Positions 5,304-63,034 of a DNA stretch of 64,000 nt are shown one piece after another. This stretch comes from Naegleria gruberi (Eukaryota), in the NCBI GenBank assembly GCA_000004985.1, contig GG738866.1; one strand, written 5' to 3'. A program made the translations under genes and the position numbers. The notes beneath the pieces were generated by a model that saw only the letters and a program-made list of their open reading frames with translations, made no database searches and was not told the origin of the DNA. How positions within the stretch are numbered: the first letter of the stretch is position 1; every line of letters begins with the position of its first letter.

Positions 5304-5371
5304 TCAACTGTTTAAATTGGATATTAAAATAAAATATTTAAAAAAATAAAAATAAAAAAATCACTATCAAC

Positions 5372-40145: not shown

Positions 40146-43100
40146 ATGTCTTCCATATTTCACGTTCCAATCCTTATCCTTATTGTGCTTATTGCTTCAC
40201 AGTGGTGGTATTTAAATCAAGAAAGAACATTGAATCAATCATCATCACCAAATATCGATCTCGGCTTACTCTCAAAGGATTGTTCCTCTCAACTTGTTAA
40301 GAATTTCTACTTTGAGAAGGCTTTGAGCCAATATAAGGAAAAATGTCTTGTTGAAAAGAAGTGTGGTTCAGAATCATTAGAAGGTAGTGCTGAGAATGTA
40401 ATTAAGCAGATAGACGAATTAGTTTCCAATCAAAAAAAGCAAGCCTTGGAAAGAAGATGCAACAACCTTATTATTCATTCCGAAAATGTTCAAATTCTTC
40501 CAAAGCAAACAATTGTTGATCCAAAACTTGATGCAATTTGTGGTAATTCAACAGAATGCATTCAAACTGTTCATGAAATGATCATTTATCATCAGGCCTT
40601 TGCTTTTGCAGTTCAAAAGCTAAAGTTGGATCAAGAAAGTGTTAAGAGATTTTTACAATTACAAATCACCAATCTTGGAGAGAAGGCAAATTCAATTTTG
40701 GAATTTATCAGAAATCCTCAAGGTATTGAGGGTCCATCTGGTTTTTCCATTTCCTTGAAGCCAACACATTCCAGCCATCACTCATTCATCCAATCAGTTT
40801 TTTATGGTTTGATGGCATTGGCTTTGGGATGGTTGTATTTAATGTTCTGTACATTTGTTCAAGTAGAAGATGATTACTCGAAGAAAATGGCAGAGGCAAC
40901 TAGAGAGACAGATGAATTGAAAAAGAAATTGAAAGAGGCAACAGTAAAGGTTCTCGAAAAAGTTAAAGAACTCAATACTGAAAAGGAAAAATTAGAGCAA
41001 GATCTTTCAGATGAAAAGCAAACTTCAACAACATTGACAAGCGAGAAAAATCTACTAGAAAATGACCTTTCAACAATGACGACCAAGAAGAATCAATTAG
41101 AAAACGATTTAGCAAACGAAAAAAAATCTACAACATCATTGAGAACTCAAAAGAAAGAAATCGAGGACAAGCTTGAAAAATCCAAGAAGGAATACCAAGA
41201 CACTCTCAATAAGAAAGACAATGAACTAAAGAATACCAATGAAAAATTGAAAGTTGTGGAGAATGAGAATAAGCAATTCAAGAAGGATTTGGATACTAAG
41301 AGCAAGGATATTACCAACTTGGACAATTCGCTGAAGAAATCTAAGGAGCAAATTGCAGAACTTGAAAAATTGCATGCCCAACTAAAAAATGAAAAAGAAC
41401 AAACATTAAGAGATCTTTCGAATTGTAAACTCAGACTTGAAAAGGAGAATGAATTATGTTCTGCTCAACTCAAAAAGCTTGAACAAGAAATCAATAACCA
41501 AATCAATGATATGAAGCAAGTCGTCCAATCAAAGGTAGTATTAGAAAAACAACTCAAGAAAGTTGAGGAAATGCACAGTGAATTGAAGAGTGAGAAGGAC
41601 TTGCAGACCGAAGAATTTTCAAAAGAAAAGGAAAGATTGCTGGGAGAAATGAAGAATTTAGAAAATGAAGTAAAGAAACAAGCAAAGATTTGTGAAATAG
41701 AAAAGATCAACACTGAACTCTCTGAACAAATTCAACAATTATCATCTGAAAGAGATGCTATTCAAAACGCACTTAATGATGAAACTCAAAGATTAAACGG
41801 CCAAACAGAAAAGATCAGAAATGTATTGGTAGAGATCTCAACATTGAAGAATACAAATGAAGAACTTGAAGAAAAAATCAAATCTTTGGAGGAGGAAAGA
41901 TCAAACAAGGACCAAAGTATTGAATTTTTGCAAGAAGAAAGCAAGGTTCTATCTGAAACTGTTACAACACTTGAAACCAAATTGCAAGATATACATACAG
42001 AAGTTGAAGATATAAAGAAGCAATTGGAAGAAGTTGCATCTCTAAAGAAGCAATTGGGAGACAAGAAAATTGAATTGCAACAAATTAATGATGGCTTGAA
42101 TAATTTAGCTGTCCAACACCAAAAGGAATTGGAAAAAGAAAAACAAAAGATTGAAGAGTACGAAAGAACTATTACTGAACTCAAAAATTTACTTTCCGAA
42201 ATGAATAATGAGTTGATGGAAGACAAGTCAATAGAATTAGAGGCAGAACTGAAAGTTGTAAAGGAGTCTAACAGCAAGCTTTTGAAATGCATGGAAGAAA
42301 GAGATGAACAGATAACTAGCCTAGAGGAAGAAATTAAGGGTTTGAAGTCTCAAACCGAAACTCTTTCTGAAGAGGCAAAGAACTTGAAAGAATCATTGAA
42401 AGAAAAGGATAATGAAGTTGTGATATTGACAGAATTAGTGAAATCTGAAGATCAACTTTTGCAAGTTGACCAGGCTGAAATTAACAATTTGAGTAGTATT
42501 GTTAATCAAGCAGATGAAGGAATTACTTATCTTAAAAACGATTTGAATACTATTAGAACTGTTCTTGCTAGCACTGAAGAAAAGCTTAATAAGTCTGTAA
42601 AGGAGAAGGAAAGAATCTATGATGAATATGAAACTGTTCAAAGGGATGTAAAGAGATTAACAGAAGAAAAGCTTGAAATGGAGAAGGAAATCCAAATGTT
42701 AAAGCAAAGAAGCCCTCGTACATTCAAATCTTCACCATCAAGGGAGAAGGAAGAAAATAGGCGATTGAAGGAGAAGATTGAATTATTGGAAAAGAAACTC
42801 AAGTTATCTTTGAAAAAGATTCCATCTGATCAAAATCTCATCAACAACCTACCAATCATCAATACAACAGCTACCACGCCTTCCAGTTCTTCAACAAGTA
42901 CTTCACCAAGCACTGAACAGGATAAGGATGAATTAATCAAACGATTGAAGGAAAAGCTTGAAATTAAGGAAAACAAATTGAAGGCTGCCATTGTGAGTAA
43001 GCTTGAAGTTGTTGAAAGACTCAAAAACTATGAAGCAGATGCTCACTTCAGCACAGCTTCTGTTGGACCTGGAGCTAATCAACCACATCAGCAACCACAA

Positions 43101-43154
43101 CAACCAGTACAACAGAAAGTGGCAACTCCAAGAAATAACAAGAAGAATTTGTAA
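40146..43154 (+). CDS. Coiled-coil protein (about 1003 aa) with two transmembrane segments and a Cys-containing lumenal N-terminal domain; paralogue of the 54190-63034 gene
   Basis: The first ATG is at 40146 (MSSIFHVPILILIVLIASQWWY...; the ORF-track start at 40104 is TTG). A second hydrophobic segment VFYGLMALALGWLYLMFCTF is followed by about 750 aa of heptad-rich coiled coil. It shares the unit KQAKICEIEKINTELSEQIQQLSSERDAIQ with the minus-strand gene. Confidence 0.75.
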   Translation: MSSIFHVPILILIVLIASQWWYLNQERTLNQSSSPNIDLGLLSKDCSSQLVKNFYFEKALSQYKEKCLVEKKCGSESLEGSAENVIKQIDELVSNQKKQALERRCNNLIIHSENVQILPKQTIVDPKLDAICGNSTECIQTVHEMIIYHQAFAFAVQKLKLDQESVKRFLQLQITNLGEKANSILEFIRNPQGIEGPSGFSISLKPTHSSHHSFIQSVFYGLMALALGWLYLMFCTFVQVEDDYSKKMAEATRETDELKKKLKEATVKVLEKVKELNTEKEKLEQDLSDEKQTSTTLTSEKNLLENDLSTMTTKKNQLENDLANEKKSTTSLRTQKKEIEDKLEKSKKEYQDTLNKKDNELKNTNEKLKVVENENKQFKKDLDTKSKDITNLDNSLKKSKEQIAELEKLHAQLKNEKEQTLRDLSNCKLRLEKENELCSAQLKKLEQEINNQINDMKQVVQSKVVLEKQLKKVEEMHSELKSEKDLQTEEFSKEKERLLGEMKNLENEVKKQAKICEIEKINTELSEQIQQLSSERDAIQNALNDETQRLNGQTEKIRNVLVEISTLKNTNEELEEKIKSLEEERSNKDQSIEFLQEESKVLSETVTTLETKLQDIHTEVEDIKKQLEEVASLKKQLGDKKIELQQINDGLNNLAVQHQKELEKEKQKIEEYERTITELKNLLSEMNNELMEDKSIELEAELKVVKESNSKLLKCMEERDEQITSLEEEIKGLKSQTETLSEEAKNLKESLKEKDNEVVILTELVKSEDQLLQVDQAEINNLSSIVNQADEGITYLKNDLNTIRTVLASTEEKLNKSVKEKERIYDEYETVQRDVKRLTEEKLEMEKEIQMLKQRSPRTFKSSPSREKEENRRLKEKIELLEKKLKLSLKKIPSDQNLINNLPIINTTATTPSSSSTSTSPSTEQDKDELIKRLKEKLEIKENKLKAAIVSKLEVVERLKNYEADAHFSTASVGPGANQPHQQPQQPVQQKVATPRNNKKNL

Positions 43155-49100: not shown

Positions 49101-52100
49101 ATTGACTTGGTATTGAGTTCTCCCTTTGATATTCCTTATACCTTACTGAGTCCAAACAACTTTTTCTGTAACATATTTGGAGAGTCATATAGTGCCCAAT
49201 TTGTTTCCAGTACCAGAGTTCAATGTCAAAATGTAGTAAGCAGAGAAGGTGAAACTGATTCTTTTATCACAACTTCTATTCGAAATACCACATTTGAAAT
49301 ATCTTCGAGAAGTCTGTTCACCTTTGTTAAAACAAGAGAAATCAAACCTGTTGGAGTGTCTCTCATTCAATCTACTGATTTTTATATTGGAACATTGCCT
49401 CAAACACAAGCAACCTATTCGTTGCAGATTAATATTGAAGATAGCTTGTTCACTGCTCTACAAATTGAAAATACTCAAAAACTTGCTATTCAACTTACTG
49501 ATCTGCTAACCAATCAGAAACAAGTCAGATTCCCACAAATTACCAGAGGATTAAACATGTCTACTCTTTCACTCAACTTGGACGTTGCCACTTCCCAGTC
49601 CATTTTCAAATATGAAATTAGAGTATTGTTTAAAGGACTGGAGATTTCTCAAGTTGCATTAAAGTATCTTCTTGTGAGAGAATCACCAATTGGAAAGGTA
49701 ATTTCCTCCAGAGATTCCACTGATAATTTACTCATCAACATGCCAAGAATTTTATCAACAGCAACTTCAATTAGTGACGATGAAAAGTTAATTATGGACA
49801 GAGTGTACTGCTCTCTTGGAGATTCAACTCTTTCCAAGGTTACCTATTCTGTGAGTGGTGGTATTCAATGTAAATTTGCAACTGATTTCACATCAACACA
49901 AACCAAATCAGTTCAACTCTTCATGTCCATCAATACTGTGGCCACAAATAGTTCAGTTATCAAAATATCCTCCAACTCACAACAAGCATATCCAATCTAT
50001 TGTTATTCAATTCCTCACTATTTACCAACTGTTTGTTCTTCAAAGGGAACTTGTAAGCAAACTGATAACTGTACATGTACCAACAATTTCCAAGGAAATG
50101 ATTGCAGTTTCACCCAATGTTTTGGAATTGCATCCACTGATAAGACTGTCTGCAGTGGATACGGTCAGTGTCCAACCTCAAATAATTGTGTTTGTAATGC
50201 AGGATTTAGTGGCACAAGATGTGAAAATAAGGTCATGTATGTTTCTGAGGACAAATCATGGCTATCCACCAGTGAATCTATGAGCAGTTTACCAAGATCG
50301 CAACTCTCTGCTCTAATAGAAACAGAGAGTTTGTCCAAAGTTGAATGTGCATCTTTATTAGCAACTGCATCTATTGATACCATTGGAGTTGATGCATTTT
50401 GTTTTGTGAACTCTGTTGATATTGTAATCATGTTGAACAGGAACGTTATGAACAATACTGTATTACTATCTTCCTCGACTATTGGTAGCATCCTTTCGAA
50501 ATCATTTTCACAATATCAAGTGCTTGACACTAAAGGAAAGTCAACCAGTCCAGAAATTCTATTAAGAACTAGTTTCTCAAGTGTGAATTTCCCTGCTGTG
50601 GTTGAACCGCTCATTGTCACTGCATCACCTCTCTCAAATTTAGGTCTATCATGGCAAAGTGATGATCCAACTATTAACAGTCAACTTTCTTCATTTGCCA
50701 ATCAGTCAATTATCAAACTGAATTTAGGAGCAAAAACAAGACAAAATGTAATTTCTAATGGAGCTGTTAATTTGGTTTTGCAAGTTGCCGATTCAACATT
50801 CAATACTTTGACCAAATATTCCACTAAATTGCTTTTGAATCAATCTTCCAACTCTGGAGAAGCAATATTCAATTATGGAGGATCTCAAATTGAATGCCAA
50901 TCCTTTGCCTCATGTGATATTGCCTTTAGTGTTGCTCCTATTAAGGGGTCTTCTATTAGGTCATCTTTCAATCCTGACATTGGAAATATAACTACAAACT
51001 ACATTCATAATTTGAAAAGTTTTGCAGAGGGTTGTTCTACTGTATATTCCCTGCGTAGCAGTGAGAGCAAACAACTGTGTATTAAGATTAGAGATAAGGG
51101 TGTTATTCAATACTATTTGGATGTCAATACTCAACAAGATAATTCCATTGTAGTCACTTTGAGTCAATTCAACACTTCCTCTAAAGTATATTCAATTATT
51201 ACCAGTTCTAACTCTGATATTATACAATTGATTAATTTGAATACTAACACTTCTGTGCAAGGCGCGAAGGATGGAAGTAGTTCAGCAGTATATTTCAAGG
51301 GAATCAAAGAGCAAGAACCATACGAGATTAGATTTACTAGTTCATTAGGAAAGGCCTCCCTCAAGATTCAATATTCCACAAGTATGCAACTCAAGCTCTT
51401 AACATTCATTCCTAAAGTAATGGGAAGAAAATCTTCATTGATATTGTCTTCTCTGGTTGACTCTGATAGCAGCACAGTTCAACAAGTTGATTTCCTGTTA
51501 ACAAAGAAAGGCCAATCACAATCCACGTCTCTTCCAATAGTTCAACAATATAATGATCTGACCTTTTCACAAGCCCTGTTGAATGCTTCACTTTTAGATA
51601 GTGGATCTTTCTACATTCTGAGAGTTCAATCAAGGAATGCTAAAGGACATGTAACCTATATTGAACAATCTTTCTATGTACAATTAGAACCAAACTATAA
51701 TATCAATTGTGCTATTACTCCAAAAGAAGGAATTGCTTATGAAACAGAATTTACAATTTCATGTTTATCCAATAATTTAGATTTAGATACTTATCAATTC
51801 CTCATAACGAATGGTACTCATCAATTAGAGCTTTCCAAAGGAAGAAAGAGAGCATTCTTTACTAGAATTGGATTTTTACAAAATGCCAAACTTCAAGTCA
51901 AAACTAATGATGTTTGGAATAGTGAAAAGACAACAGAGTTCCCAATCCAACTCAAACATCCAAAACAAGTTTATCAAACATCTTTAGAATTTTATCAATA
52001 TTTAACAAGAAAAGTTCAGGATCTTCTCAATGAAGAAGTTTCTCCAAACAGTTTAGGATTTGATTATGTCAACAGTGTCATCACCTTCATGTCAATTCTT

Positions 52101-54182
52101 GGTGCTGACTCGAGTATTGTACCAAATTATGAATATAGAACAGAGTTGGGTTTGAGCTTGCTGGATATATTCGAAAAAGTCGTTGGCTATGCTAAACAGA
52201 ATAAGGATTCTACGTATATTGGAAGAAGTTTACCGATAATGAATCAATTCTTGCAACAATTTTCAAATACCACACAAACAAATAGAGATAGAGTCTATGG
52301 ACTGATCAACTCTACGTTGGATATATTACAAGACTTTTCATCAACTAATCCAAGTAGTAGTATTAATGATATATTTACTATTGTTGACAGAATTATTCCA
52401 CTAGTAGCAACTGATTTACAAACTCAATTATTCAACAAATTGAGAATAGTTAATCAACAGAATTTGTTTGGAAAGATGAAGAATGGTTATTTGGTTTCAA
52501 ACTTCTCCAAACTTTCCAATACTACTCTTGAAAATTATCAAATCATTAACTTGAATGTGTTGGGAAGAAAAATTTCAGAGCCAATCAATCTCGGTACACT
52601 TTCACTCAATCTTCCTTCACAAATTAGTTCAGATTCTTTGAATTCTCTATTTGAAGTGAGTGCTCTAATTTATCAAACCAAATCCAAAACAAGTAGAACA
52701 TTACAACAAGCTACCTCTATTCCTAATGTACAAGTTGCACTAACGAAGAATTCCATTCCACTTACCGATTCTTCACTAAATGTCAACATTACCTTCCCAA
52801 TCCAATTGAATAGTAAGACAAGAGCCCAATGTAGATCATTTTCCTTCCAGGAAGAACCAAAGAATCACACAACATTCCAATCCGAATCAGCAGTGGTATG
52901 CTTAGTGGCACTCTCAGATTTGAATAGAAACTTGTATATTTATACCTATGAAGGTATTTTTATAGGACCACTGCCACAAAATAGTGATAATGTGAAAGGT
53001 CCACTTCTTCAGGATAACACCTTGACCATAGCTTTGGCCACCATTTTGTCAACTGTTGGTTTGATATTTATATGCTGTTCACTCCTGGTATTGTTGTTCA
53101 TTATTGGAAAATGTAGAGGAAGAGGAAAGAAGGAAAATACACCAAATATGACAGAGTTTACCTATAAGGCATCTGGATCTCATTCTCCAATTGGAATTTC
53201 AGATCATTCTTCATCTGATAAGAATTCTGATACTTCATCAGAAAAACAACAAACTGAAAAGAATATCAATCAACGAGTGACTGAGAATGTTGAGCTATTG
53301 AATGGACAATATCAATTATTAGAAACCATTTCCATTCACTCCAACTATACTCTCTATAGAGCTAATAATATTAGTACAGGTCAGGTTGTGTGTATTAAGA
53401 AGATTGGATTTTCTTCTTTTGAGGAAATTAATTCATCATCCTCTGTTATTGTGAAAGAGTATACGAACATGTCTCGTACTCAACATGCTAATATTGTCAA
53501 GTTACACGAGGTGTTTGTTGATACAAGTCTTAAGGCAGTTTGTTTAGCTCTTGAATATTTCGAGCTTGGAAATTTGAATGAATTACTACTCAAGCGAATT
53601 CAACAAAACCAAATATTTGATGAGATTCATATTGGTCAGATATTGTATCAACTTTCCCAAGCTCTTTCGTATCTTCATGATGAATGTGGATTGTGTCACA
53701 GGAATATCAGGTTGGAAAACATATTTGTAAGACAATTTACACCACAAAAAATTGATATTTGTTTGGGTGAATTTACAGATTCGAGATCCAGAAACTCACT
53801 CAAAATAGAACATGATGTGCAAGACCAATCGTTTGGATCTGCTATAAGTTCTTATAAGTTTGGTAATTTTACCAAAGCTGTGAAGGAAAATGCAATCAAA
53901 TCTACCAGTGACCAGTTTACGTCTGAAGATACATTCCAGGTTGCGTGTGTAATGTACAAACTAATGTCGTTTGATATGGAGAGTAAGGTCAATTCATTAT
54001 TTGAGGAGTATGAGTTTGAAAAAGACGTATTCACATTGCTAGAATCAAGGATACACTCATCATATTCTAGTGAAATAGTTTCCATCATCTTGTCAATGTT
54101 TGCTCGAGAAGAAAAAAATCGTCCAACAATGAACCAAGTCACCAATTTATTGGGCAATGTATTCAAGTTTGAAACACAATAA
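46191..54182 (+). CDS. Receptor-like transmembrane pseudokinase (2663 aa). It has a signal peptide, a ~2250-aa Ser/Thr-rich ectodomain with two CFG-type EGF-like modules, one transmembrane segment and a cytoplasmic kinase-like domain with degenerate catalytic motifs.
   Basis: The N-terminus MKQLLSPKSILLFIILSIASIGWMVIGQ is a signal peptide. EGF modules lie near 50000-50230 (CSSKGTCKQTDNCTCTNNFQGNDCSFTQCFGIASTDKTVCSGYGQCPTSNNCVCNAGFSGTRC). The transmembrane segment is IALATILSTVGLIFICCSLLVLLFIIG. The kinase-like domain has VVCIKKI (VAIK-like), HANIVKLHE, YLHDECGLCHRNIRLENIFV (HRD changed to HRN), ICLGEFTDS in place of DFG, no GxGxxG loop, DTFQVACVMYKLM and NRPT. Confidence 0.8.
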   Translation: MKQLLSPKSILLFIILSIASIGWMVIGQELPYSSSWSITNSNIQTCNTIRGQQDDYFYMGGKFSGSIDTSAIGVISPDRFNNSVVLATSLTSEAYALKVQKSTGKVDSSIQFAPSGNTETIQSSEIISIGTSTQFQIFAGIINTNQGIFISKFNTNGMEWTQTYLFSSGNYITVRDSKVVDTSIVIVGTYRGDISISNGSIALTSSSSQDYENMFIAILDMTGSIQYIYTNNGNNAKVIPQNLHLSSNGEFCYVMGVFSGSTLSFTKSTSSSEQLTLTSTTSTDQYDLFHLKYSITSKELVWLMGTTGPHQMDYSYKIVGSSPSTIYAFRDIIIDQGYSESSDCGSQTDVPIATLTRNLFTLLSSNVLFGGASATGSQSLSFFKALDFAGFSNSILFDNGTTSSVMNISRSTPLTLSSTGFTTCPNKQALMNYSTEYTLNYASGSETILLKSYVSIPKLLFTSNYNVGVINYAGITSTLTFNMPSTLLSVIDKNLVVDVGGTKRPVKNSNNVYTADLFSTTVGWNNITIYFNNTAQNRYDLISMNSVKTFFFDDSLVISIQNSTILFNSSTLNNGRGTLTLTGLLNSTYNFPQEYVSSIMCRVAQQNFATNIDGNQITCQNVPFSERNTTVVLVYRYSNSIFYNISRSLDLSFIETRTLTTSSQYRVITTDEQTKGSFALSLTIGKTMGSLDVKLQATNQNGAASYLPFTVSSGTSISATLAVAQFEKANLKFMVKSQNDYVDFTNTISIQFLKQVKFTSLSSTIDNSRQMKTAFSIQPNLIDSLKSQLTCQYNESPTLRTALNSTDNTCNIDNRFLSTNNTLQLLLNMGNNVYLQISDSISLTSPSLPTISFLFTPNFGISGFTNITTEITSQDLIFEQLKRNLQIEINSIRYTPTVGSDGKVSFPLVTSVAGWNNLTVLGKYSTNDTSYSVISTQSKIYFFNTPQTNIFTFPNGNITLLTPSSSRNFMIDLVLSSPFDIPYTLLSPNNFFCNIFGESYSAQFVSSTRVQCQNVVSREGETDSFITTSIRNTTFEISSRSLFTFVKTREIKPVGVSLIQSTDFYIGTLPQTQATYSLQINIEDSLFTALQIENTQKLAIQLTDLLTNQKQVRFPQITRGLNMSTLSLNLDVATSQSIFKYEIRVLFKGLEISQVALKYLLVRESPIGKVISSRDSTDNLLINMPRILSTATSISDDEKLIMDRVYCSLGDSTLSKVTYSVSGGIQCKFATDFTSTQTKSVQLFMSINTVATNSSVIKISSNSQQAYPIYCYSIPHYLPTVCSSKGTCKQTDNCTCTNNFQGNDCSFTQCFGIASTDKTVCSGYGQCPTSNNCVCNAGFSGTRCENKVMYVSEDKSWLSTSESMSSLPRSQLSALIETESLSKVECASLLATASIDTIGVDAFCFVNSVDIVIMLNRNVMNNTVLLSSSTIGSILSKSFSQYQVLDTKGKSTSPEILLRTSFSSVNFPAVVEPLIVTASPLSNLGLSWQSDDPTINSQLSSFANQSIIKLNLGAKTRQNVISNGAVNLVLQVADSTFNTLTKYSTKLLLNQSSNSGEAIFNYGGSQIECQSFASCDIAFSVAPIKGSSIRSSFNPDIGNITTNYIHNLKSFAEGCSTVYSLRSSESKQLCIKIRDKGVIQYYLDVNTQQDNSIVVTLSQFNTSSKVYSIITSSNSDIIQLINLNTNTSVQGAKDGSSSAVYFKGIKEQEPYEIRFTSSLGKASLKIQYSTSMQLKLLTFIPKVMGRKSSLILSSLVDSDSSTVQQVDFLLTKKGQSQSTSLPIVQQYNDLTFSQALLNASLLDSGSFYILRVQSRNAKGHVTYIEQSFYVQLEPNYNINCAITPKEGIAYETEFTISCLSNNLDLDTYQFLITNGTHQLELSKGRKRAFFTRIGFLQNAKLQVKTNDVWNSEKTTEFPIQLKHPKQVYQTSLEFYQYLTRKVQDLLNEEVSPNSLGFDYVNSVITFMSILGADSSIVPNYEYRTELGLSLLDIFEKVVGYAKQNKDSTYIGRSLPIMNQFLQQFSNTTQTNRDRVYGLINSTLDILQDFSSTNPSSSINDIFTIVDRIIPLVATDLQTQLFNKLRIVNQQNLFGKMKNGYLVSNFSKLSNTTLENYQIINLNVLGRKISEPINLGTLSLNLPSQISSDSLNSLFEVSALIYQTKSKTSRTLQQATSIPNVQVALTKNSIPLTDSSLNVNITFPIQLNSKTRAQCRSFSFQEEPKNHTTFQSESAVVCLVALSDLNRNLYIYTYEGIFIGPLPQNSDNVKGPLLQDNTLTIALATILSTVGLIFICCSLLVLLFIIGKCRGRGKKENTPNMTEFTYKASGSHSPIGISDHSSSDKNSDTSSEKQQTEKNINQRVTENVELLNGQYQLLETISIHSNYTLYRANNISTGQVVCIKKIGFSSFEEINSSSSVIVKEYTNMSRTQHANIVKLHEVFVDTSLKAVCLALEYFELGNLNELLLKRIQQNQIFDEIHIGQILYQLSQALSYLHDECGLCHRNIRLENIFVRQFTPQKIDICLGEFTDSRSRNSLKIEHDVQDQSFGSAISSYKFGNFTKAVKENAIKSTSDQFTSEDTFQVACVMYKLMSFDMESKVNSLFEEYEFEKDVFTLLESRIHSSYSSEIVSIILSMFAREEKNRPTMNQVTNLLGNVFKFETQ

Positions 54183-54189
54183 AAGTTTA

Positions 54190-57033
54190 TTATTTCCTTG
54201 GTGATCTTGGTGAAATTTGATCGTAGGAAACAGCAGCAAAAGCTTTTTGCAAGCTAGCTAACTTGATCTCAATTTCATCTAATAATTGAGGAGGTGAAGA
54301 AGGAATTGGGTAAAAATAATCTTCTCTCAAAGGTGATTGTGGAATATCCATATGCCCTTGGGAGATTGATAAACCTTCTTTAGTTGTTTCTGCCATGATA
54401 GTAGCTAATTGCTCAAGTTGGCCAATAGCAAATTTCAAATCATTCTCGAGTTTCTTTGTGTAAGCTTCCAAACCTTGTATACCGTCCGTAAGAGTCTTGA
54501 CGGTTTCTTGTTGGCGTAATATTTCCCCATTCAGATTTTCAATTGTTCCTCTTAGTTCTGAACTTTCCTTTGCGTTTTGGTTTTTTAACTTTTCCAACGC
54601 TTCTTGCTTGTCAACAAGTAGCTCCTTTTGAGATTGAGATAATTTTTCATTCTCTTGGAGAATACCATGTAAATCTTTCATAGACTCCTGCAAGAGTTGA
54701 ATCTCCTTCTTTGCCTGACTCTTTTCCTTCTCTAAAATTGATCGTAGCTCGTCTTCTCTTATTTTCATTTCAGCATCTGCTTTTTTCTTCTCATTAAATA
54801 CCTTTTGCATTTCATCTTTTAGCAACTTTAAAGTTTCTGTCTGCAAGAAAATACCTTCTTCTAGCTGTTTTGTTTTTTTCCTTTCCTTTTCTAAATAATC
54901 TTTAAATGTTTCCAAATCATTCTTAAGGCGCCCAATATCTTCAACCGATTTTTCTTGATATTCTTTAAACTCCTCTCCCTTGGTTCTCACTTTTGATTTT
55001 TCCTTTTCCAGCAATTCTGCTTTTGAATTAACCAACTCTTTAAGCTTGTTTGTTTCTTCTTTTTCAACCAAAAGGTCCATCTCAATCTTGCTCAAGTCAA
55101 TTTCCATATTCTGTTTATACAGGTTCATTTCCTTTTCAAATTCTTTCTTTTCATTCATAATTTTTTCTATCTCTTTGTTTTTTTGTGTAAGCTCTTCTTC
55201 AAATTTCTTAAGGAAGTTGTTTAAATCTCCAATTTCTTTCTGATTTTGATTTTTCAAGTCTGTCAAGCTTCTATTTTCCTCTGAAAGTTCGTTTTCTATA
55301 TGCTTCAAACTCTCTACCACCTTCTCAAGTTCTTGTTTAACTGCTGATTCTCTTTGTAACTTGGATTCACCTTCTAAGTTTGCACGTTCAATGCCTTCAA
55401 GAGATTTTTCTAATTCCTGCTTGACATTTGCGAGCTCATTGGATAAATCTTCTTCTTTTTGATTCTTTTCAATCATCAACTGTTTGATATCAACAAGATC
55501 TTTGTGTAATTCTCTTACAGAGTTACTTTCTCTAGTGATTTGTTCTTCCCTTTCGCTTAACTTTTCTTTAAGGGAGCATATCAAGTTCTCCTTTTCAGAT
55601 AATTGAGTGGATAGATTGGCCTTCTCAGATATTATAACGGCCAATTGTTCTGTTGCATTCTTGGCCTCCTCTTCAAGAATTTTAAGCTTGATTTCTCTTG
55701 AAGATTTATCTTCCAAAAGAGAATTGAGTTCCTCTTGAAGATTTAATATATCTTTTTTCAGATTTGTCAAGTCTTGTTGCAACTCACTGTTTTCGTGCAT
55801 TAAATCTCTCACCCTATGCTGTTGTGCCTCTATGAAACTCTCAGTTTTGACTCTTGATACAGTATTCTCAGATACGATTTCTTTTAGTCTCGAGTTGTCT
55901 TTTTCGAGATCATTAACACGGTTTTTGAGCTTTTCAGTTTCATCCAAGATTGCTTGCTTTTCATCTTTTTCAGATTGGATATTTTCTGTTAGTGAGATTA
56001 CCAAGTTAGATTTTTCTTCGTGCAATTTATCAATAGTAGTTCTCAAGTTTTCAACTTCACTCTCGCTTGAATGAAGAATACCTTGTATTTTAGCTTTAAT
56101 GTCTTCTTTTTCTTTCTTGAGGTCATCCCTTTCCTTTTCGATAGCAGACGATTTGTTTTCCAATTGTTTCAACTTTCCATCTGTATCTGAAATAACTTTT
56201 TGTAGATTTTCAATGTTCAAATCAGAAACTTCCAATTTAGAACATAAATCCTTATTAATATCTTTGAGAGCTACAATCTCATTATTAAGAACAGAACATT
56301 CTTGTTGTAATTGGTCATTCTTCGATTTCAATTCTTCTAGAGAGGATGTAATATCTTGAATCCTTGCTTCCGTATCCAATAACTTTTCAGTAAGGGTGGT
56401 ATTTTGGGAAATAAAATTAATTTTCTCATTTTCTGCAATAGTAGTCATTTCTATTAGCTGTTGTTCGAGCTCTTTGTACTTCTGCATTTGATGTGACAAA
56501 TCAGACTTTGAATTTGAAAGCTCGTTATCGAGAGCTTCCTTTTGTGAAAGTAGTTGTAGATTTTCATCCTTGGTGGATTCAATTGTGTTTTGCTGATCTT
56601 GGACTTGTGAGGTGCAGTCATCAAGTGACTCCTTTAATTTTAGAATTTCTGATTGTGATTGAGAGTACTTTTCAGTTAACTCTTGATTTTTCTCCTCTTG
56701 GACTTTTCTAAATAGATCAAACTCCTTGCATTTAGAATTGATCGATTCATTCATAGAAAATAATTTCGATTCCTTTTCCTGTAAGAGTTCTTCTTTTTCT
56801 GCAATATTATTTCCCAAGGTTAATATTTTATCTTTCAACATATCCATTGTGGAATTCTTGCCGTAAAGCTCATTTTTCATTCGATTAAGTTGATCTTCCA
56901 AATTGCTTAGTGAGTTTGTAAGCTCGTTGTTGGTAGTTTCTAATGTTTGCTTTTTCTCAAAAAGGCCAGTGTTAATATTTTCCATTTCACAAATCTTTGC
57001 TTGTTTCTCTTCGACAATTTTCTTTTCCTTCAT
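54190..57033 (-). CDS. Giant coiled-coil gene, segment 4 of 4 (947 aa; the C-terminus is Pro/Ser-rich and ends ...DQISPRSPRK)
   Basis: This segment starts with an ATG (57033) at the third frame change (MKEKKIVEEKQAKICEMENINTGL...). It overlaps the segment 3 ORF by 47 nt. Confidence 0.55.
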   Translation of the reverse strand: MKEKKIVEEKQAKICEMENINTGLFEKKQTLETTNNELTNSLSNLEDQLNRMKNELYGKNSTMDMLKDKILTLGNNIAEKEELLQEKESKLFSMNESINSKCKEFDLFRKVQEEKNQELTEKYSQSQSEILKLKESLDDCTSQVQDQQNTIESTKDENLQLLSQKEALDNELSNSKSDLSHQMQKYKELEQQLIEMTTIAENEKINFISQNTTLTEKLLDTEARIQDITSSLEELKSKNDQLQQECSVLNNEIVALKDINKDLCSKLEVSDLNIENLQKVISDTDGKLKQLENKSSAIEKERDDLKKEKEDIKAKIQGILHSSESEVENLRTTIDKLHEEKSNLVISLTENIQSEKDEKQAILDETEKLKNRVNDLEKDNSRLKEIVSENTVSRVKTESFIEAQQHRVRDLMHENSELQQDLTNLKKDILNLQEELNSLLEDKSSREIKLKILEEEAKNATEQLAVIISEKANLSTQLSEKENLICSLKEKLSEREEQITRESNSVRELHKDLVDIKQLMIEKNQKEEDLSNELANVKQELEKSLEGIERANLEGESKLQRESAVKQELEKVVESLKHIENELSEENRSLTDLKNQNQKEIGDLNNFLKKFEEELTQKNKEIEKIMNEKKEFEKEMNLYKQNMEIDLSKIEMDLLVEKEETNKLKELVNSKAELLEKEKSKVRTKGEEFKEYQEKSVEDIGRLKNDLETFKDYLEKERKKTKQLEEGIFLQTETLKLLKDEMQKVFNEKKKADAEMKIREDELRSILEKEKSQAKKEIQLLQESMKDLHGILQENEKLSQSQKELLVDKQEALEKLKNQNAKESSELRGTIENLNGEILRQQETVKTLTDGIQGLEAYTKKLENDLKFAIGQLEQLATIMAETTKEGLSISQGHMDIPQSPLREDYFYPIPSSPPQLLDEIEIKLASLQKAFAAVSYDQISPRSPRK

Positions 57034-60000
57034 CCTCCAACTTCCTCATTTCTTCCAACAGTCTTTCCTTTTCTTTAGAAAATTCTTCACTCTTCTTTTC
57101 ATTTTCCTTCTCCAATACATTGATGGTCTCTTCAAGTTTCAATACGCAATTATCATACTTATTCTTATTCTGTTCCATTTCTTGTCTTGCCTTTTCCAAT
57201 TCATTCTTTGTATCTTCAAGCTGTCTAATTATTTCTTCTTGCTTTTCACTTAGTGCCAATTTCTTTGCCTCAAGATCTAAATTATGTTGTTCAAGTACTT
57301 GAACCTGTTTTTTCAAATCTTCAATACAGAGAGTATCTTGTTGTGCTCTCTGTTTCAACTCTACGCTAGTATTTTCTGCTTCATTAAAGCGTTCTTCAGC
57401 ATTTGCACGAAGGGTTTCTTCTTTCAACAAACCAATTTTCAAAATATCTAGCTTCTCTTGAAGAACTACTCGATCACTTTCAAGCTTCTTCTTGTCATTA
57501 TTTAAATTCTTTTCTGACTCTTTCAGAATTGAAATTGACTTTTCTAGTTCTTTCACTTTATCTGTTTGCTTCTTAGCATTCATGGTAGCATCCTTGAGTT
57601 CATATTTCAATGTATCAATAGTTTTACCAAGATATTTCACTTCTTCTAGGAGTTTTGATTTCTCTGATTCTAATTGCTTAATTTTTGAATTGTGTGAATT
57701 AACTTCTTTTGCATTTTCTTTGAGTTGCTCTTTTTGGGTGTTCATAACATCTTGAAGAACTTTGATTTTCTTTTCTTGAGTATTACACATTATCTGTGTT
57801 TCTTCTTTGTCTTTAGTCAATAAGTCAGCCTCCTTAGATTTATCAAGAATCTCTTTAGACAATCTTGTTATTGCTTCAGAAGTAGTTCGTTCAAGATTAT
57901 ACTTTTCTGTATTTAATTGAGATATATATTGATCCAACATAGTCTTCTGTTGCTCAACATTGTTAATGCTCTCTTTCAGCTCTTGGTTGGAGGATTCAAG
58001 ATTCTCTATAAATGATTGTTTTTCTTTTGATGTTTGAATTTCCTTGGTAAGAGTTTCTTGAATAACATTTCTTTCAGATGATAATTGTTGAATTTGTTCA
58101 GAGAGTTCACAAATCTTTGCTTGTTTCTCCTCGACTATTGCCTTTTCCTTCTTTACTTCATCCTCCAACTTCCTCATTTCTTCCAACAGTCTTTCCTTTT
58201 CTTTAGAAAATTCTTCACTCTTCTTTTCATTTTCATTTTCCAATACATTGATGGACTCTTCAAGTTTCAATACACAATCACCATACTTATTCTTATTCTG
58301 TTCCAATTCATTCTTTGCATCTTCAAGCTGTCTTATTATTTCTTCTATATCTTTCTTTAAATTCTGTTCTGACTCTTGCAGTGTTTCAAGGGCCCTCTCC
58401 AGCTCTTTCACTTTATCTTTGTACATTTCTAAATTGTTGGTAGCGTCTTTGAATTGAGATTCTAAATTATTAATAGTTTGACCAAGATCCTCCAATGTTC
58501 GTTGGCGATTATCATCTTCCTGCTGTTTGTCATTAATAACCGAAGCAAGTTTAATCTCGCCTTGTCGAACATTTTCACGTAAATTGTTTACAACTGTTTC
58601 CAATTCTTGATTACATTTGGTGAGGTTTTGCACTGTGTCTTCAAGATGTTTCAATTTATCAAGAAGGGTAATATTTGAGGATGCCAGTTGATTTGAAAGT
58701 TCCTTTTCTTTTCTGAAACCATATTGTATATTTTGTAGCTCCTGTGAAATACGAGTGTTTTCTTTTTCTAATTGATTGTTTGCTGTTGATAAAGCCTGGT
58801 TATCGTCCGATAACTTGAGCAGCAAATCTTCATTTTGTCTAATATTGTCTGTCAGGTTTGATTTCTCTGATTCCAACTGTTTGATTAGTGAAATTTGTGA
58901 AATGGTTTCTTTAGCACTTTCTTTGAGTTGCTCTTTTTGAGTGTTCAAAAGGTCTTGAAGAACTTTGATACTCTTGTCTTTAGCATTACATGCTGTTTCA
59001 GTGTTGCTTATCCTTTCTTTAAGCTCTTTAGTAGAAGTCTCAAGAAGGTTCTCCATTATTGATTGTTGCTCTTTTGATAATTGAATTTCATTATTGAGAG
59101 ACTTTTGAATGGCATCTCTTTCAGATGATAATTGTTGAATTTGTTCAGAGAGTTCAGTGTTGATCTTTTCTATTTCACAAATCTTTGCTTGTTTCTCCTC
59201 AGCTATTTCCTTTTCCTTCTTTACTTCATTTTCTAAATTCTTCATTTCTTCCAACAGTCTGTCCTTTTCTTTAGAAAATTCTTCACTCTTCTTTTCATTT
59301 TCCTTCTCCAATACAGTAATAGATTCCTTTAGTTTCAATACACAATCATCATACCTATTCTTATTCTGTTCCAGTTCATTCCTTGCATCTTCAAGCTGTC
59401 TTATTATTTGTTCTCTATCACTCTCAAGGCTCTTCTTGTCATTATTTAAATTCTTTTCTGACTCTTTCAGAATTGAAATTGACTTTTCTAGTTCTTTCAC
59501 TTTATCTGTTTGCTTCTTAACATTCATGGTAGCATCCTTGAGTTCATATTTCAATGTGTTAATGGTTTTACCAAGATATTTCACTTCTTCTAGGAGTTTT
59601 GATTTCTCTGATTCTAATTGCTTAATTTTTGAAGCATTTTCTTTGAGTTGCTCTTTTTGAGTGTTCATAACATCTTGAAGAACTTTGATTTTCTTTTCTT
59701 GAGTATTACACGTTGTCTGTATTTCTGCTTTGTCTTTAGTCAATAAGTCAGCCTCCTTAGATTTATCAAGAATCTCTTTAGACAATCTTGTTTTTTCGTT
59801 TTCCATGACTTCCTTTTGGGTTTTCTTTTCTCCAGAAAGATCTATTATTTTGTTTTCTAACTGTTTAATACGTGACTGCTGTTCAAGTAAATCAAGTTGT
59901 TTAGACTCTAAATTATTAGCCAACTCTATGTTCTGAGTTTTGATTTGGGTCAAGTCTTTCTCTAATCCTGTTATTGTTTCATAATTTGCTTGTTGAAGAT

Positions 60001-60262
60001 TGTCCTTTTCTGTATTTAATTGAGATATATATTGATCCAACATAGTCTTCTGTTGTTCAACATTGTTAATGCTTTCCTTCAACTCTTGGTTGGAGGATTC
60101 AAGGTTGGCTATCATTAATTGTTTGTTTTTTGATACTTGAATTTCGTCGTTGAGCGTGAATTGAATGGCATCTCTTTCAGATGATAATTGTTGAATTTGT
60201 TTTGATAGCTCAGTGTTGATCTTTTCTATTTCACAAATCTTTGCTTGTTTCTCTTGAGTCAT
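56987..60262 (-). CDS. Giant coiled-coil gene, segment 3 of 4 (1091 aa, internally duplicated)
   Basis: This segment starts with an ATG (60262) created exactly at the frame change (MTQEKQAKICEIEKINTEL...). It contains duplicated ~1 kb and ~2 kb units. Confidence 0.55.
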   Translation of the reverse strand: MTQEKQAKICEIEKINTELSKQIQQLSSERDAIQFTLNDEIQVSKNKQLMIANLESSNQELKESINNVEQQKTMLDQYISQLNTEKDNLQQANYETITGLEKDLTQIKTQNIELANNLESKQLDLLEQQSRIKQLENKIIDLSGEKKTQKEVMENEKTRLSKEILDKSKEADLLTKDKAEIQTTCNTQEKKIKVLQDVMNTQKEQLKENASKIKQLESEKSKLLEEVKYLGKTINTLKYELKDATMNVKKQTDKVKELEKSISILKESEKNLNNDKKSLESDREQIIRQLEDARNELEQNKNRYDDCVLKLKESITVLEKENEKKSEEFSKEKDRLLEEMKNLENEVKKEKEIAEEKQAKICEIEKINTELSEQIQQLSSERDAIQKSLNNEIQLSKEQQSIMENLLETSTKELKERISNTETACNAKDKSIKVLQDLLNTQKEQLKESAKETISQISLIKQLESEKSNLTDNIRQNEDLLLKLSDDNQALSTANNQLEKENTRISQELQNIQYGFRKEKELSNQLASSNITLLDKLKHLEDTVQNLTKCNQELETVVNNLRENVRQGEIKLASVINDKQQEDDNRQRTLEDLGQTINNLESQFKDATNNLEMYKDKVKELERALETLQESEQNLKKDIEEIIRQLEDAKNELEQNKNKYGDCVLKLEESINVLENENEKKSEEFSKEKERLLEEMRKLEDEVKKEKAIVEEKQAKICELSEQIQQLSSERNVIQETLTKEIQTSKEKQSFIENLESSNQELKESINNVEQQKTMLDQYISQLNTEKYNLERTTSEAITRLSKEILDKSKEADLLTKDKEETQIMCNTQEKKIKVLQDVMNTQKEQLKENAKEVNSHNSKIKQLESEKSKLLEEVKYLGKTIDTLKYELKDATMNAKKQTDKVKELEKSISILKESEKNLNNDKKKLESDRVVLQEKLDILKIGLLKEETLRANAEERFNEAENTSVELKQRAQQDTLCIEDLKKQVQVLEQHNLDLEAKKLALSEKQEEIIRQLEDTKNELEKARQEMEQNKNKYDNCVLKLEETINVLEKENEKKSEEFSKEKERLLEEMRKLEDEGKENCRRETSKDL
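57460..60250 (-). repeat. Nested tandem segmental duplications inside the coiled-coil gene, with units of about 1.1 kb and about 1.96 kb
   Basis: Positions 57487-57875 and 59443-59805 are more than 95% identical. Positions 57880-58100 match 59990-60200. The ctttacttcatcctccaacttcctcatttcttccaacag block recurs at about 57030, 58150 and 59220. Confidence 0.75.
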
Positions 60263-61637
60263 CTATTTCCTTCTTCACTTCATTCTCCAACTTCTTCATT
60301 TCTTCCAACAATCTGCCGTTTTCTTTTGAAAATTCTTCTAATTGTTTCATTCTTGAATTAGCTTCATTAGCATTTTCTTTGAGTTGCTCTTTTTGAGTGC
60401 TCATGAGGTCCTTGAGAATATTGATTTGTTTCTCTTTAGCGTTACATGTTGTTTCAGCATTGCTAATCTTTTCTTTCAACTCTTGATTAGTGTGCTCGAG
60501 ATTATCGATAACCGATTGTTTGTCTTTTGATACTTGAAATTCCTTCTTAAGAGTTTCTTGAATAGAATCTCTTTCAGATGATAATTGTTGAATTTGTTTT
60601 GATAGCTCAGTGTTGATCTTTTCCATTCCACAAATATTTGCTTGTTTCTCTTGAACCATTTCTTTTCCCTTCTTCACTTCATTCTTCATTTCTTCCAACA
60701 GTCTTTCTCTTTCCTTTGCTAAACGGCAATCTTCCAACCGCATATCTTCAATCCTTTTTTCATGTTCATCCTTCAAGTTATCATACATTTTCTCAACTTC
60801 TAAAATTTGTACATGTAGACCTCTCAATTCATCATTTCTGTGTGCTAAATCTTCACTAAGATTTTCTATTGTTTTCATAGCCTCGGCAACTTGCTGCTCG
60901 GTTTTGAAGAGTGCTTCACCTTTACCAAGGTTTTCTCCAGTTAAATTTTCAACCTCACCCAGCAATTCTTCAATTTTCTTTTCATTCTCACAAATGGTGT
61001 GACAAAGATCCTGTTTGTTTTGTTCGAGAGACTTGGATAACTGCACTAGATCTTCTAAATATTGGTGCATTTTCTCCTTCTCTTGTAAAAGTTGCTGCCT
61101 CTCAGAAGCAATCTCATTGTTAGCTTGATCGAGTTGGTCAATTTTCTTCTTTTGTTCCATTGTTTGTTCTTTCTCTACATTGAGTTCGTTTAATCTTTCC
61201 GAAATTGAGTGTTGTAAAACGCTAATTTTCTCATCCTTTCTTTCGATATCACTCTTAAGTTGTTCGGTTTCATTCTCCATCACTTTCAACTTCTCAACAA
61301 TAATATTTGCCTCTTCTCTTCTCTTGTTGCAACAGTCCTCAAGATCTTTTTCTCTAGCATTTAGTCTTTCTGTCAATCGCTTTATATCCTCCTCGAGTTG
61401 TGTTGTTCTTTGAGATTTAGTATCCTGTTCATAGGTTAAATCCTTAATTTTTTCTCGGAGACTTTGGGATTCTACTTGTTTTTTCTCCCACATATTAGTA
61501 ATTTTTGCTAGCTTTTCATCTTTCTCATTTAATTGGAGAGAAAGGCTATCATTTCTTGTTTGTAAAGCATTCAACTCTTCTTCCTTCTGTTGGTTAAGTT
61601 GGTCTAGAGCAGAAATATTGGACAGAGAGTCTTTCAC
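60231..61637 (-). CDS. Giant coiled-coil gene, segment 2 of 4 (frame shifted relative to segment 1; no ATG at its start)
   Basis: This frame opens with GTG immediately after a TAA and overlaps the segment 1 stop by 4 nt. The coiled coil continues (KDSLSNISALDQLNQQKEEELNAL...). The segment ends ...EVKKEIDDSRETSKDL*. Confidence 0.5.
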   Translation of the reverse strand: MKDSLSNISALDQLNQQKEEELNALQTRNDSLSLQLNEKDEKLAKITNMWEKKQVESQSLREKIKDLTYEQDTKSQRTTQLEEDIKRLTERLNAREKDLEDCCNKRREEANIIVEKLKVMENETEQLKSDIERKDEKISVLQHSISERLNELNVEKEQTMEQKKKIDQLDQANNEIASERQQLLQEKEKMHQYLEDLVQLSKSLEQNKQDLCHTICENEKKIEELLGEVENLTGENLGKGEALFKTEQQVAEAMKTIENLSEDLAHRNDELRGLHVQILEVEKMYDNLKDEHEKRIEDMRLEDCRLAKERERLLEEMKNEVKKGKEMVQEKQANICGMEKINTELSKQIQQLSSERDSIQETLKKEFQVSKDKQSVIDNLEHTNQELKEKISNAETTCNAKEKQINILKDLMSTQKEQLKENANEANSRMKQLEEFSKENGRLLEEMKKLENEVKKEIDDSRETSKDL

Positions 61638-63034
61638 TTATCTTTCAGCTCCGATATCTTTGTGTTTTTGGTATCTATAATTTTTGCAGAGTTTTCATTT
61701 TCCTCACGTAAAGAAGAAACTTCTCCTTTAAGTTTGGTAACTATTTCAGAAATATTGATTGTTTCTCTTTCTAATTCTGCAGATCTTTCCGTAGATCTTT
61801 CCTTTTCTTTGGTTACCTTTTTTAACTCTTGGAAAATATTATTATGTCTTATTTGTACCTCATTTTCTTTTTTCTGAGATTCTGTCTTTAATTGTTGGAT
61901 TTCGTTTTCCAACTTTTCTTTAAGAGATGTGGCTTCTTTCTTTTGCAAGGATAAGTCTTTATCAAGACCCCTATTCTTTTCTGTTAGAGAAGAAACTTTC
62001 TTCGATAATTCTTCTTCTTTCTTCTTTGCTGCCTCCTTTTCTTTTGCACTTTCTGCATGAAGTTTGGTAGTTGAGGTCTTGTATTGCTCATCTAATCTCT
62101 CAAGGTTTGAGTTTTGAGTTCTTGCTTCGGTTTTTGCTTCCTCGAACTTTTGTTCAAGATTAGCTATTGTGTCTTTGAGCGATGCAACTAAATCTCTGCT
62201 TTCTTTTAATTCATTCTGTTTGATTTTGCTTCTTTGATTAGCAGACTCTAGATCTTTGTTCAGCCTATCTATTCTATTCTCCAATGAGGTTTGCTCCAAT
62301 GTGAGAGACTTGTATTGCATGACCATCAATACCACCATAATACCAAAAATGATAGATGTTACAACCTTATCTTCCCTCTCATCATCAGTGTTATCCATTG
62401 TGGTCTTGACAGAAATATCAAATCCTGAATATCCCTCCAACCCTGGTACAGTTCTAATGAATTGTGAAACCTTATCGGGCTCATCAAATAATTTGGAAGC
62501 CTTTGTTTCCATGAACTTTCTGATGTGTTGAGTGTTGAGGTTTGTCTTTTCATTTGCATATTCAAAGACTTGCATATAAATAATTACTTCAAAGACTGCA
62601 CTCATACACTTTGTGGAGCCTCTACAAATCGAATAGACACGATGATCAACCTCCTTCTTTAAAATTGGAACAACCTGCTCATGATGAATAACAAGATTAC
62701 CACACTCACTATTCAAAGACTTTTCTAATTGCCTGGAAATCATTGCATCAATTTTTCTATCTAAATTGGCCACACCACAGTATTTGTTATCGGAAGCGCA
62801 ACCATTCTTGTATTCTGTTAAGGCTTGAACAAAATAAAAATTCTTGATGAGTTGTGAATGGCAATCTTGCTCTAGCAGAGACAAATCGATGAGTGAAGTC
62901 TCGTTAATTATTATGGTCTTTGATGAGGGTATTGTTGTAAAATCGCTCGACTTGAATGGTGTATAAAATTGGCTAATTATCAATACCACCAAGGCTAAAG
63001 CACTAAGGAACAAATTTATCCTTGTAGCTTGCAT
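61634..63034 (-). CDS. Giant coiled-coil gene with two transmembrane segments, segment 1 of 4 (N-terminal lumenal and transmembrane domain plus coiled coil, 466 aa up to an in-frame TGA)
   Basis: ATG at 63034. The N-terminal domain is homologous to the 40146 gene: LLEQDCHSQLIKNFYFVQALTEYKNGC against LLSKDCSSQLVKNFYFEKALSQYKEKC; ECGNLVIHHEQV against RCNNLIIHSENV; ICRGSTKCMSAVFEVIIYMQVF against ICGNSTECIQTVHEMIIYHQAF. The second transmembrane segment is SIIFGIMVVLMVMQY. Confidence 0.7.
   Translation of the reverse strand: MQATRINLFLSALALVVLIISQFYTPFKSSDFTTIPSSKTIIINETSLIDLSLLEQDCHSQLIKNFYFVQALTEYKNGCASDNKYCGVANLDRKIDAMISRQLEKSLNSECGNLVIHHEQVVPILKKEVDHRVYSICRGSTKCMSAVFEVIIYMQVFEYANEKTNLNTQHIRKFMETKASKLFDEPDKVSQFIRTVPGLEGYSGFDISVKTTMDNTDDEREDKVVTSIIFGIMVVLMVMQYKSLTLEQTSLENRIDRLNKDLESANQRSKIKQNELKESRDLVASLKDTIANLEQKFEEAKTEARTQNSNLERLDEQYKTSTTKLHAESAKEKEAAKKKEEELSKKVSSLTEKNRGLDKDLSLQKKEATSLKEKLENEIQQLKTESQKKENEVQIRHNNIFQELKKVTKEKERSTERSAELERETINISEIVTKLKGEVSSLREENENSAKIIDTKNTKISELKDK

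Follow-up and report, generated by a model that had tools for sequence, protein, structure and literature searches.

Four consecutive open reading frames of Naegleria gruberi form one giant coiled-coil gene cut by three recent frame breaks

Are four consecutive open reading frames (ORFs) on one strand of the Naegleria gruberi genome separate genes, or pieces of one gene, and if the latter, is the gene broken in the organism or only in its assembled sequence? The locus occupies positions 54190-63034, minus strand, of the window, by which we mean the whole 64,000-nucleotide (nt) stretch of contig GG738866.1 (GenBank assembly GCA_000004985.1) that was analysed; it is part of a 469-kb scaffold of N. 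gruberi NEG-M. An earlier note on this DNA had described a coiled-coil gene divided by three frame changes, two of them at newly created ATGs, and had offered three explanations: a pseudogene, a repeat-collapse artefact and a gene fissioning into pieces. We find that the four ORFs, here called A to D, are a single gene of ~2,950 codons cut by three small insertions or deletions (indels), and that the frame breaks are very recent.

The coordinates and frames of the minus-strand ORFs were computed over 8.8 kb of the window. In 5' to 3' order, the ORFs are as follows.
61634..63034, minus strand: ORF A, 466 amino acids (aa): signal anchor, six-cysteine domain and transmembrane helix, followed by the first ~220 aa of the coiled coil
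60231..61637, minus strand: ORF B, 468 aa, GTG start, coiled coil, with intact motif copy 1 and the short unit U0
56987..60262, minus strand: ORF C, 1091 aa, with the three repeat units U1, U2 and U3
54190..57033, minus strand: ORF D, 947 aa, with unique coiled coil and a Pro-rich C-terminal tail

Successive ORFs overlap by 4, 32 and 47 nt. The number, lengths and overlaps of the four ORFs given in the earlier note were thus reproduced exactly. ORFs A-D are the only long open stretches, and each minus-strand frame contains 126-238 stop codons over the 8.8 kb, so that open frames of this length greatly exceed what chance would give. The start coordinates modulo 3 are 1, 2, 1 and 0 for A, B, C and D, which corresponds to a -1 shift at the A/B junction and to +1 shifts at B/C and C/D. 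Antisense ORFs of 101-167 aa, rich in Ser, Phe and Leu, lie opposite the coiled-coil gene at 56903-57302 and 59157-59660 on the plus strand. They result simply from the purine richness of the sense strand (the plus strand has an AT skew of about -0.3), and no protein collection contains them.

All four ORFs encode the same kind of protein. Hydrophobic residues recur with a period of 3.5 residues in A, B, C and D (z = 8.6-27 against shuffled sequences), and when the frame is repaired, not a single proline is found between residues 198 and 2898 of the protein. The coiled-coil repeats also run on from one ORF to the next, as the earlier note had proposed: a 24-nt motif, GAGAAACAAGCAAAGATTTGTGAA, which is read EKQAKICE, is present in five copies in the gene, at 60650, 60253, 59197, 58129 and 57009. 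These copies bound units of 397, 1056, 1068 and 1120 nt, and ORF C consists of exactly three of them.
59198-60253, minus strand: U1, repeat unit in ORF C
58130-59197, minus strand: U2, repeat unit in ORF C
57010-58129, minus strand: U3, repeat unit in ORF C

The units are 63-91% identical to each other. In pairwise codon comparisons, the ratio of nonsynonymous to synonymous divergence (dN/dS) is 0.24-0.42 at dS of 0.24-1.2. Since the units diverged under such constraint, the block from U0 in ORF B to U3 at the end of ORF C must for long have been translated in a single, uninterrupted frame. Tandem Repeats Finder reported no repeats here, as the units exceed its 500-nt period limit and are too divergent.

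Repeat collapse, one of the three explanations of the earlier note, is disfavoured by these same units. They are divergent and have kept their lengths (1056, 1068 and 1120 nt); the longest exact repeat inside the gene is 80-99 nt (none reaches 100 nt), and the sequence was produced on a Sanger platform. A collapse is therefore unlikely.

The connection between ORF A and the rest of the gene is provided by a paralogue 13 kb away, which remains in one piece.
40146..43154, plus strand: paralogue, 1,002 codons in one intact ORF, with a motif copy at 41673-41696

Its N-terminal domain is 31% identical to ORF A over 400 aa (E = 7e-46), and all six of the six cysteines are conserved. The paralogue also has the transmembrane helix and a coiled coil, with a single copy of the EKQAKICE motif. 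Because it joins the head and the motif-bearing rod in one ORF, a head of the ORF A type and a rod of the ORF B/C type belong to one frame. In DNA, the motif region of the paralogue and repeat copy 3 are 90% identical, a hint of gene conversion between the two genes. The exact product of the paralogue was not found in the protein collection, and an annotated model, if there is one, therefore differs from the 1,002-codon ORF.

How old are the breaks? There are no nonsense codons in the 2,972 codons of ORFs A-D, despite ~569 stop-prone site-equivalents. The neutral divergence since inactivation would therefore be less than ~0.5%. The core reading of the earlier note, one long coiled-coil gene with three frame changes and no ancient decay, is supported by this count, by the purifying selection among the units and by the intact paralogue of the same architecture.

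The three breaks are located as follows, together with an intact copy of the segment that is affected in two of them.
61634..61640, minus strand: A/B break, -1 shift, TAAGTGA (61640-61634)
60254..60308, minus strand: B/C break, +1 shift, segment of 55 nt instead of 57 or 48 nt in intact copies
57010..57058, minus strand: C/D break, +1 shift, segment of 49 nt instead of 57 nt in intact copies
60651..60698, minus strand: variable segment of copy 1, intact and in frame at 48 nt, with a Met codon homologous to the ORF C ATG

The A/B break lies in unique sequence. In TAAGTGA, the TAA of the B frame is followed at once by the TGA of the A frame, and the break is equivalent to a deletion of 1 nt or an insertion of 2 nt. 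The other two breaks fall in the same purine-rich spot of two units, where three intact motif copies and the intact paralogue align colinearly across the junctions and show that the indels are not divisible by three. The spot is a ~50-nt purine-rich microrepeat (GAAGTRAAGAAGGAAAAG...) directly 5' of the motif. Measured from the anchor TTGGAAGAAATGA to the motif, the spacing in the five copies is 48, 55, 57, 57 and 49 nt. It is a multiple of three in the three intact copies, and differs from 57 by -2 and -8 in the two broken ones. At B/C, the alignment with copy 1 places gaaaagaaATGgttcaagag against gaaatag--ATGactcaagag, with a net change of -2 nt. At C/D, a gap of 8 nt (gaagtaaa / taaagaag) has direct repeats of GAAG at its flanks. 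The earlier note had correctly recognized the C/D break as a deletion relative to the sister copies but had given its size as 7 bp; the spacing of 49 against 57 nt gives 8, and the +1 shift that is needed at C/D fits -8 and not -7.

A gap of 8 nt between GAAG direct repeats is the mark of replication slippage. The paralogue has a gap of 24 nt at the same spot, again in frame. Together with the spacings in the gene, this indicates that the length of the segment changes recurrently and that working copies keep multiples of three. The purine-rich spot is thus a length-variable slippage hot spot, in which selection keeps the working copies in frame. Further in-frame losses are seen around the motif. 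Copy 4 (58106-58129 region, minus strand) lacks 21 nt (IEKINTE) straight after the motif, and upstream of the motif 9 nt (KLE) are missing from copy 1, which adds to the evidence that the neighbourhood of the motif is prone to indels.

Could the four pieces be on their way to becoming separate genes? Under gene fission, some or all of the four ORFs would now be expressed separately from the ATG or GTG codons at the breaks. It is true that ORFs C and D start with an ATG near the break and that every frame is long and open. These ATGs, which the earlier note took to be newly created at two breaks, both pre-exist in sister copies. Copy 1 reads GAA ATG GTT CAA GAG (EMVQE, continuing as EMVQEKQ) in frame, and the ATG ACT CAA GAG of ORF C is its homologue. 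At B/C, therefore, the break relative to the sister copies stands, and the new ATG does not. The ATG of ORF D is an out-of-frame ATG within GAT-GAA that is also present in copies 2-4, that is, in three of the four sister copies, and the 8-nt deletion shifts this existing ATG into the frame of ORF D. Being older than the breaks, neither ATG is an adaptation to them. ORF B has no ATG at its start at all, only GTG. Moreover, the overlaps of 4-47 nt leave no spacer between the ORFs, and the guanine-plus-cytosine (GC) content of the junctions is 32-38%, which is coding-like, against 13-28% in true spacers. C and D both begin in the middle of a repeat unit, at the mutational hot spot, the paralogue keeps its head and rod undivided, and the breaks are younger than ~0.5% divergence. 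Fission in progress is unsupported by these data, and we consider it very improbable.

Alternatively, the breaks may be bypassed in the mature message or during translation, so that a full-length protein is made. Bypass would require either short introns or programmed recoding, with a -1 shift at A/B and a +1 shift at the UUG-UGA-A that ends both B and C. ORFs B and C do share the end context GAT TTG TGA AAT, and a +1 shift there re-enters the downstream frame. This coincidence is trivial, as both breaks lie upstream of the same motif. The intact copies and the paralogue read EEKQAKICE under purifying selection, and RETSKDL followed by a stop occurs only in the broken copies; at A/B, no heptamer of the X XXY YYZ type is present. 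As for introns, there are many GT...AG pairs of compatible phase. These candidates are purine-rich and coding-like, lack pyrimidine tracts and are as numerous as chance AGs allow. A scan of the A/B junction likewise gave only chance-level GT..AG pairs in purine-rich, coding-like sequence, and the B/C and C/D junctions align colinearly with the coding sister copies except for the 2 and 8 nt. Bypass by introns or recoding thus seems hardly credible. We also give only a slight chance to the broader case of real indels in a locus that is expressed all the same, either as fission products (a 466-aa membrane-anchored stub and independently initiated rod fragments) or as a full-length protein through recoding at the two UUG-UGA-A sites and at A/B.

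A more serious alternative is that the gene is intact in the organism and that the three breaks are errors in a draft Sanger consensus, for example, from miscalled heterozygous in-frame length variants in purine runs prone to slippage or from low-quality coverage. NEG-M was assembled as a Sanger draft in 1,977 scaffolds, and the organism is reported to be heterozygous (PMC9928731). The draft contains gaps. The rest of the gene looks functional, with no nonsense codons, no prolines in 2,700 residues, purifying selection and heptad periodicity. Two of the breaks are in a segment of in-frame length variation, where allelic polymorphism combined with ambiguous alignment of reads is plausible. Frameshift errors that truncate gene models have been described in draft assemblies of Heterolobosea (bioRxiv 10.64898/2026.08.18.745565). 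In those cases, as here, a real gene is spread over several ORFs and only a fragment of it is annotated, in our case the 466-aa ORF A. Those errors were reported from long-read or Trinity assemblies, at homopolymer runs or at polymorphisms among the reads. The Naegleria locus differs in that it comes from a Sanger assembly and in that two of its changes are multi-nucleotide. Sanger base-calling errors do not typically take the form of a complex -2 change or of an 8-nt deletion that falls cleanly between direct repeats, and the locus itself contains neither Ns nor other traces of a contig join. The other long ORFs of the window, ~38.7 kb in total, have zero frame breaks. At the error rate that this allows, the probability of at least three randomly scattered errors in 8.8 kb is ~0.002-0.03, and three independent errors are improbable unless they have a locus-specific cause. 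We regard consensus error as a substantial possibility, well short of an even chance.

The explanation that we favour is that the indels are real and have turned the assembled haplotype into a young null allele or a unitary pseudogene, and we put its chances slightly above even. Of the three explanations offered at the outset, pseudogene, in the form of a young pseudogene or null allele, is the best that remains. Three very recent indels, equivalent to -1, -2 and -8 nt, would have interrupted the frame of one gene of ~2,950 codons, and two of them lie at homologous positions of the purine-rich microrepeat, a spot whose length changes by slippage in every copy. No more than ORF A, the N-terminal 466 aa, would then be translated. 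ORFs B, C and D would remain as untranslated remnants, since a ribosome scanning from the cap would not get as far as their ATGs. That the indels are in the DNA of the organism, and did not arise as errors of the consensus, we infer from the sequence. Real indels are favoured by two multi-nucleotide changes among the three, one of which is a textbook slippage deletion. Several hits in one gene are also the pattern predicted for a dead allele.

Several points weigh against the null allele or pseudogene. The indels are known from the sequence of one draft assembly only, and this assembly has a 50-N gap elsewhere in the window. Zero nonsense codons with three frameshifts are only moderately likely under neutral decay (rough estimate 0.1-0.2) and fit equally well an intact gene with three consensus errors. 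At a length-polymorphic heterozygous microrepeat, a consensus caller could yield an out-of-frame chimera. Compared with young unitary pseudogenes or null alleles made by slippage indels, the locus is similar in that small indels disrupt its frame where paralogous copies are intact, that one of them is a deletion flanked by short direct repeats, and that the hits are clustered while the neighbouring genes are intact. It differs in that no nonsense substitution or other sign of decay is seen and in that the indels come from one assembly.

In sum, the ORFs, overlaps and repeats reported in the earlier note have been upheld, and the size of the C/D deletion, the change at B/C and the new ATGs have been corrected. 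Its interpretation holds as far as one long coiled-coil gene with three recent breaks, and not as far as fission or repeat collapse.

What protein would the intact gene encode? The predicted order is a signal anchor, a helical six-cysteine domain of ~200 aa, a transmembrane helix, a heptad rod of ~2,700 residues and the Pro-rich tail. The rod is partly made of the ~1.1-kb repeat units. Two hydrophobic segments are recognized in ORF A.
62951..63034, minus strand: N-terminal hydrophobic segment, aa ~1-28, signal peptide or signal anchor, with Kyte-Doolittle windows > 1.5
62297..62374, minus strand: second hydrophobic segment, aa ~221-246, predicted transmembrane helix before the coiled coil, at a position kept in the paralogue

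From this membrane topology, which is itself predicted, the six-cysteine domain would be luminal or extracellular. The architecture suggests that the product may act as a membrane-anchored filamentous tether or spacer, by analogy with kinectin, p180/RRBP1, CLIMP-63 and golgins such as giantin, which also combine a membrane anchor with a very long, proline-free heptad rod with internal repeats. The resemblance is architectural only: these proteins have no sequence or Pfam relationship to the Naegleria gene, and the anchor of the Naegleria protein is the N-terminal six-cysteine domain with the transmembrane helix, not a tail anchor. A Pfam search gave only generic coiled-coil matches, all sub-threshold, and a PDB sequence search gave chance-level matches or none. 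AlphaFold2 models of the N-terminal domain were poor, with a predicted local distance difference test score (pLDDT) of 52 for the domain alone, and a pLDDT of 58 and a predicted template modelling score (pTM) of 0.51 when the paralogue was included. A Foldseek/PDB search with these models returned only matches with E > 1 and template modelling scores (TM) < 0.3, and no fold was assigned.

Only a small part of the gene is annotated. ORF A corresponds to the 466-aa 'predicted protein' NAEGRDRAFT_48880 (EFC44865 / D2VEF0). For ORFs B, C and D, no exact sequence was found among NCBI, UniProt or EukProt proteins. The order of the UniProt/GenBank accessions tracks the position on the scaffold, and D2VEE9 is followed directly by D2VEF0. 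No protein is therefore annotated for ORFs B-D, and ~7.4 kb of coding-derived sequence (54190-61637, minus strand) is without protein annotation.

Searches for relatives returned little. An exhaustive HMMER search with ORF D against a library of 1.84 billion representative proteins, clustered at 50% identity, gave three marginal coiled-coil matches (best E 5e-5), none of them close. With the N-terminal 273 aa of ORF A as the query, only ORF A itself was matched, and repeat unit U2 matched no homologue. For the repaired 2,948-aa protein, 8,000 word-sharing candidates swamped the search, and no match was returned, even to ORF A. A metagenome scan with ORF A was empty, as was a scan of prokaryotic genome contigs with a two-sequence alignment of the N-terminal domains. 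A gapped DNA pattern across the C/D junction had no match, contig look-ups for the exact product of ORF A found nothing on record, and a literature search on the locus tag and on pseudogenes or frameshifts of N. gruberi found nothing for this locus. The only homologue found is the unsplit paralogue in the window, and no orthologue was found in the protein and contig searches. The broken gene and the paralogue apparently form a small family that is restricted to N. gruberi.

The nearest neighbour of the gene lies on the opposite strand.
46191-54182, plus strand: D2VEE9, convergent neighbour, 2,663 aa, with epidermal growth factor (EGF) and protein-kinase domains, receptor-kinase-like

Only 7 nt (54183-54189) separate the stop codons of the D2VEE9 gene and ORF D, so that the 3' untranslated regions of the two must overlap. 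Elsewhere in the window, D2VED2, an IQ-motif protein, and D2VED3 on the same strand are separated by a 68-nt spacer (5304-5371) that is rich in A/T homopolymers and has a GC content of 13%. Real intergenic regions in the window may therefore be very short yet compositionally distinct. The 50-N scaffold gap, at 14463-14512, lies inside a giant EGF/teneurin-like repeat gene (10358-20696, plus strand). It makes two ORFs of 1414 and 2079 aa seem to overlap by 146 nt, which is a scaffolding artefact and not a frameshift.

A broken gene is ordinary and does not challenge current understanding; it would be of interest in itself only if the pieces proved to be expressed. The chief value of the present analysis is a correction of the annotation, in that the reference model NAEGRDRAFT_48880 is the N-terminal fragment of a gene of ~2,950 codons. 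The locus also illustrates clearly how a purine-rich microrepeat in coding sequence can be a slippage hot spot, with its intact copies kept at multiples of three. Finally, the broken locus and its paralogue define a small family of giant coiled-coil proteins that are anchored in the membrane and share a conserved N-terminal domain with six cysteines.

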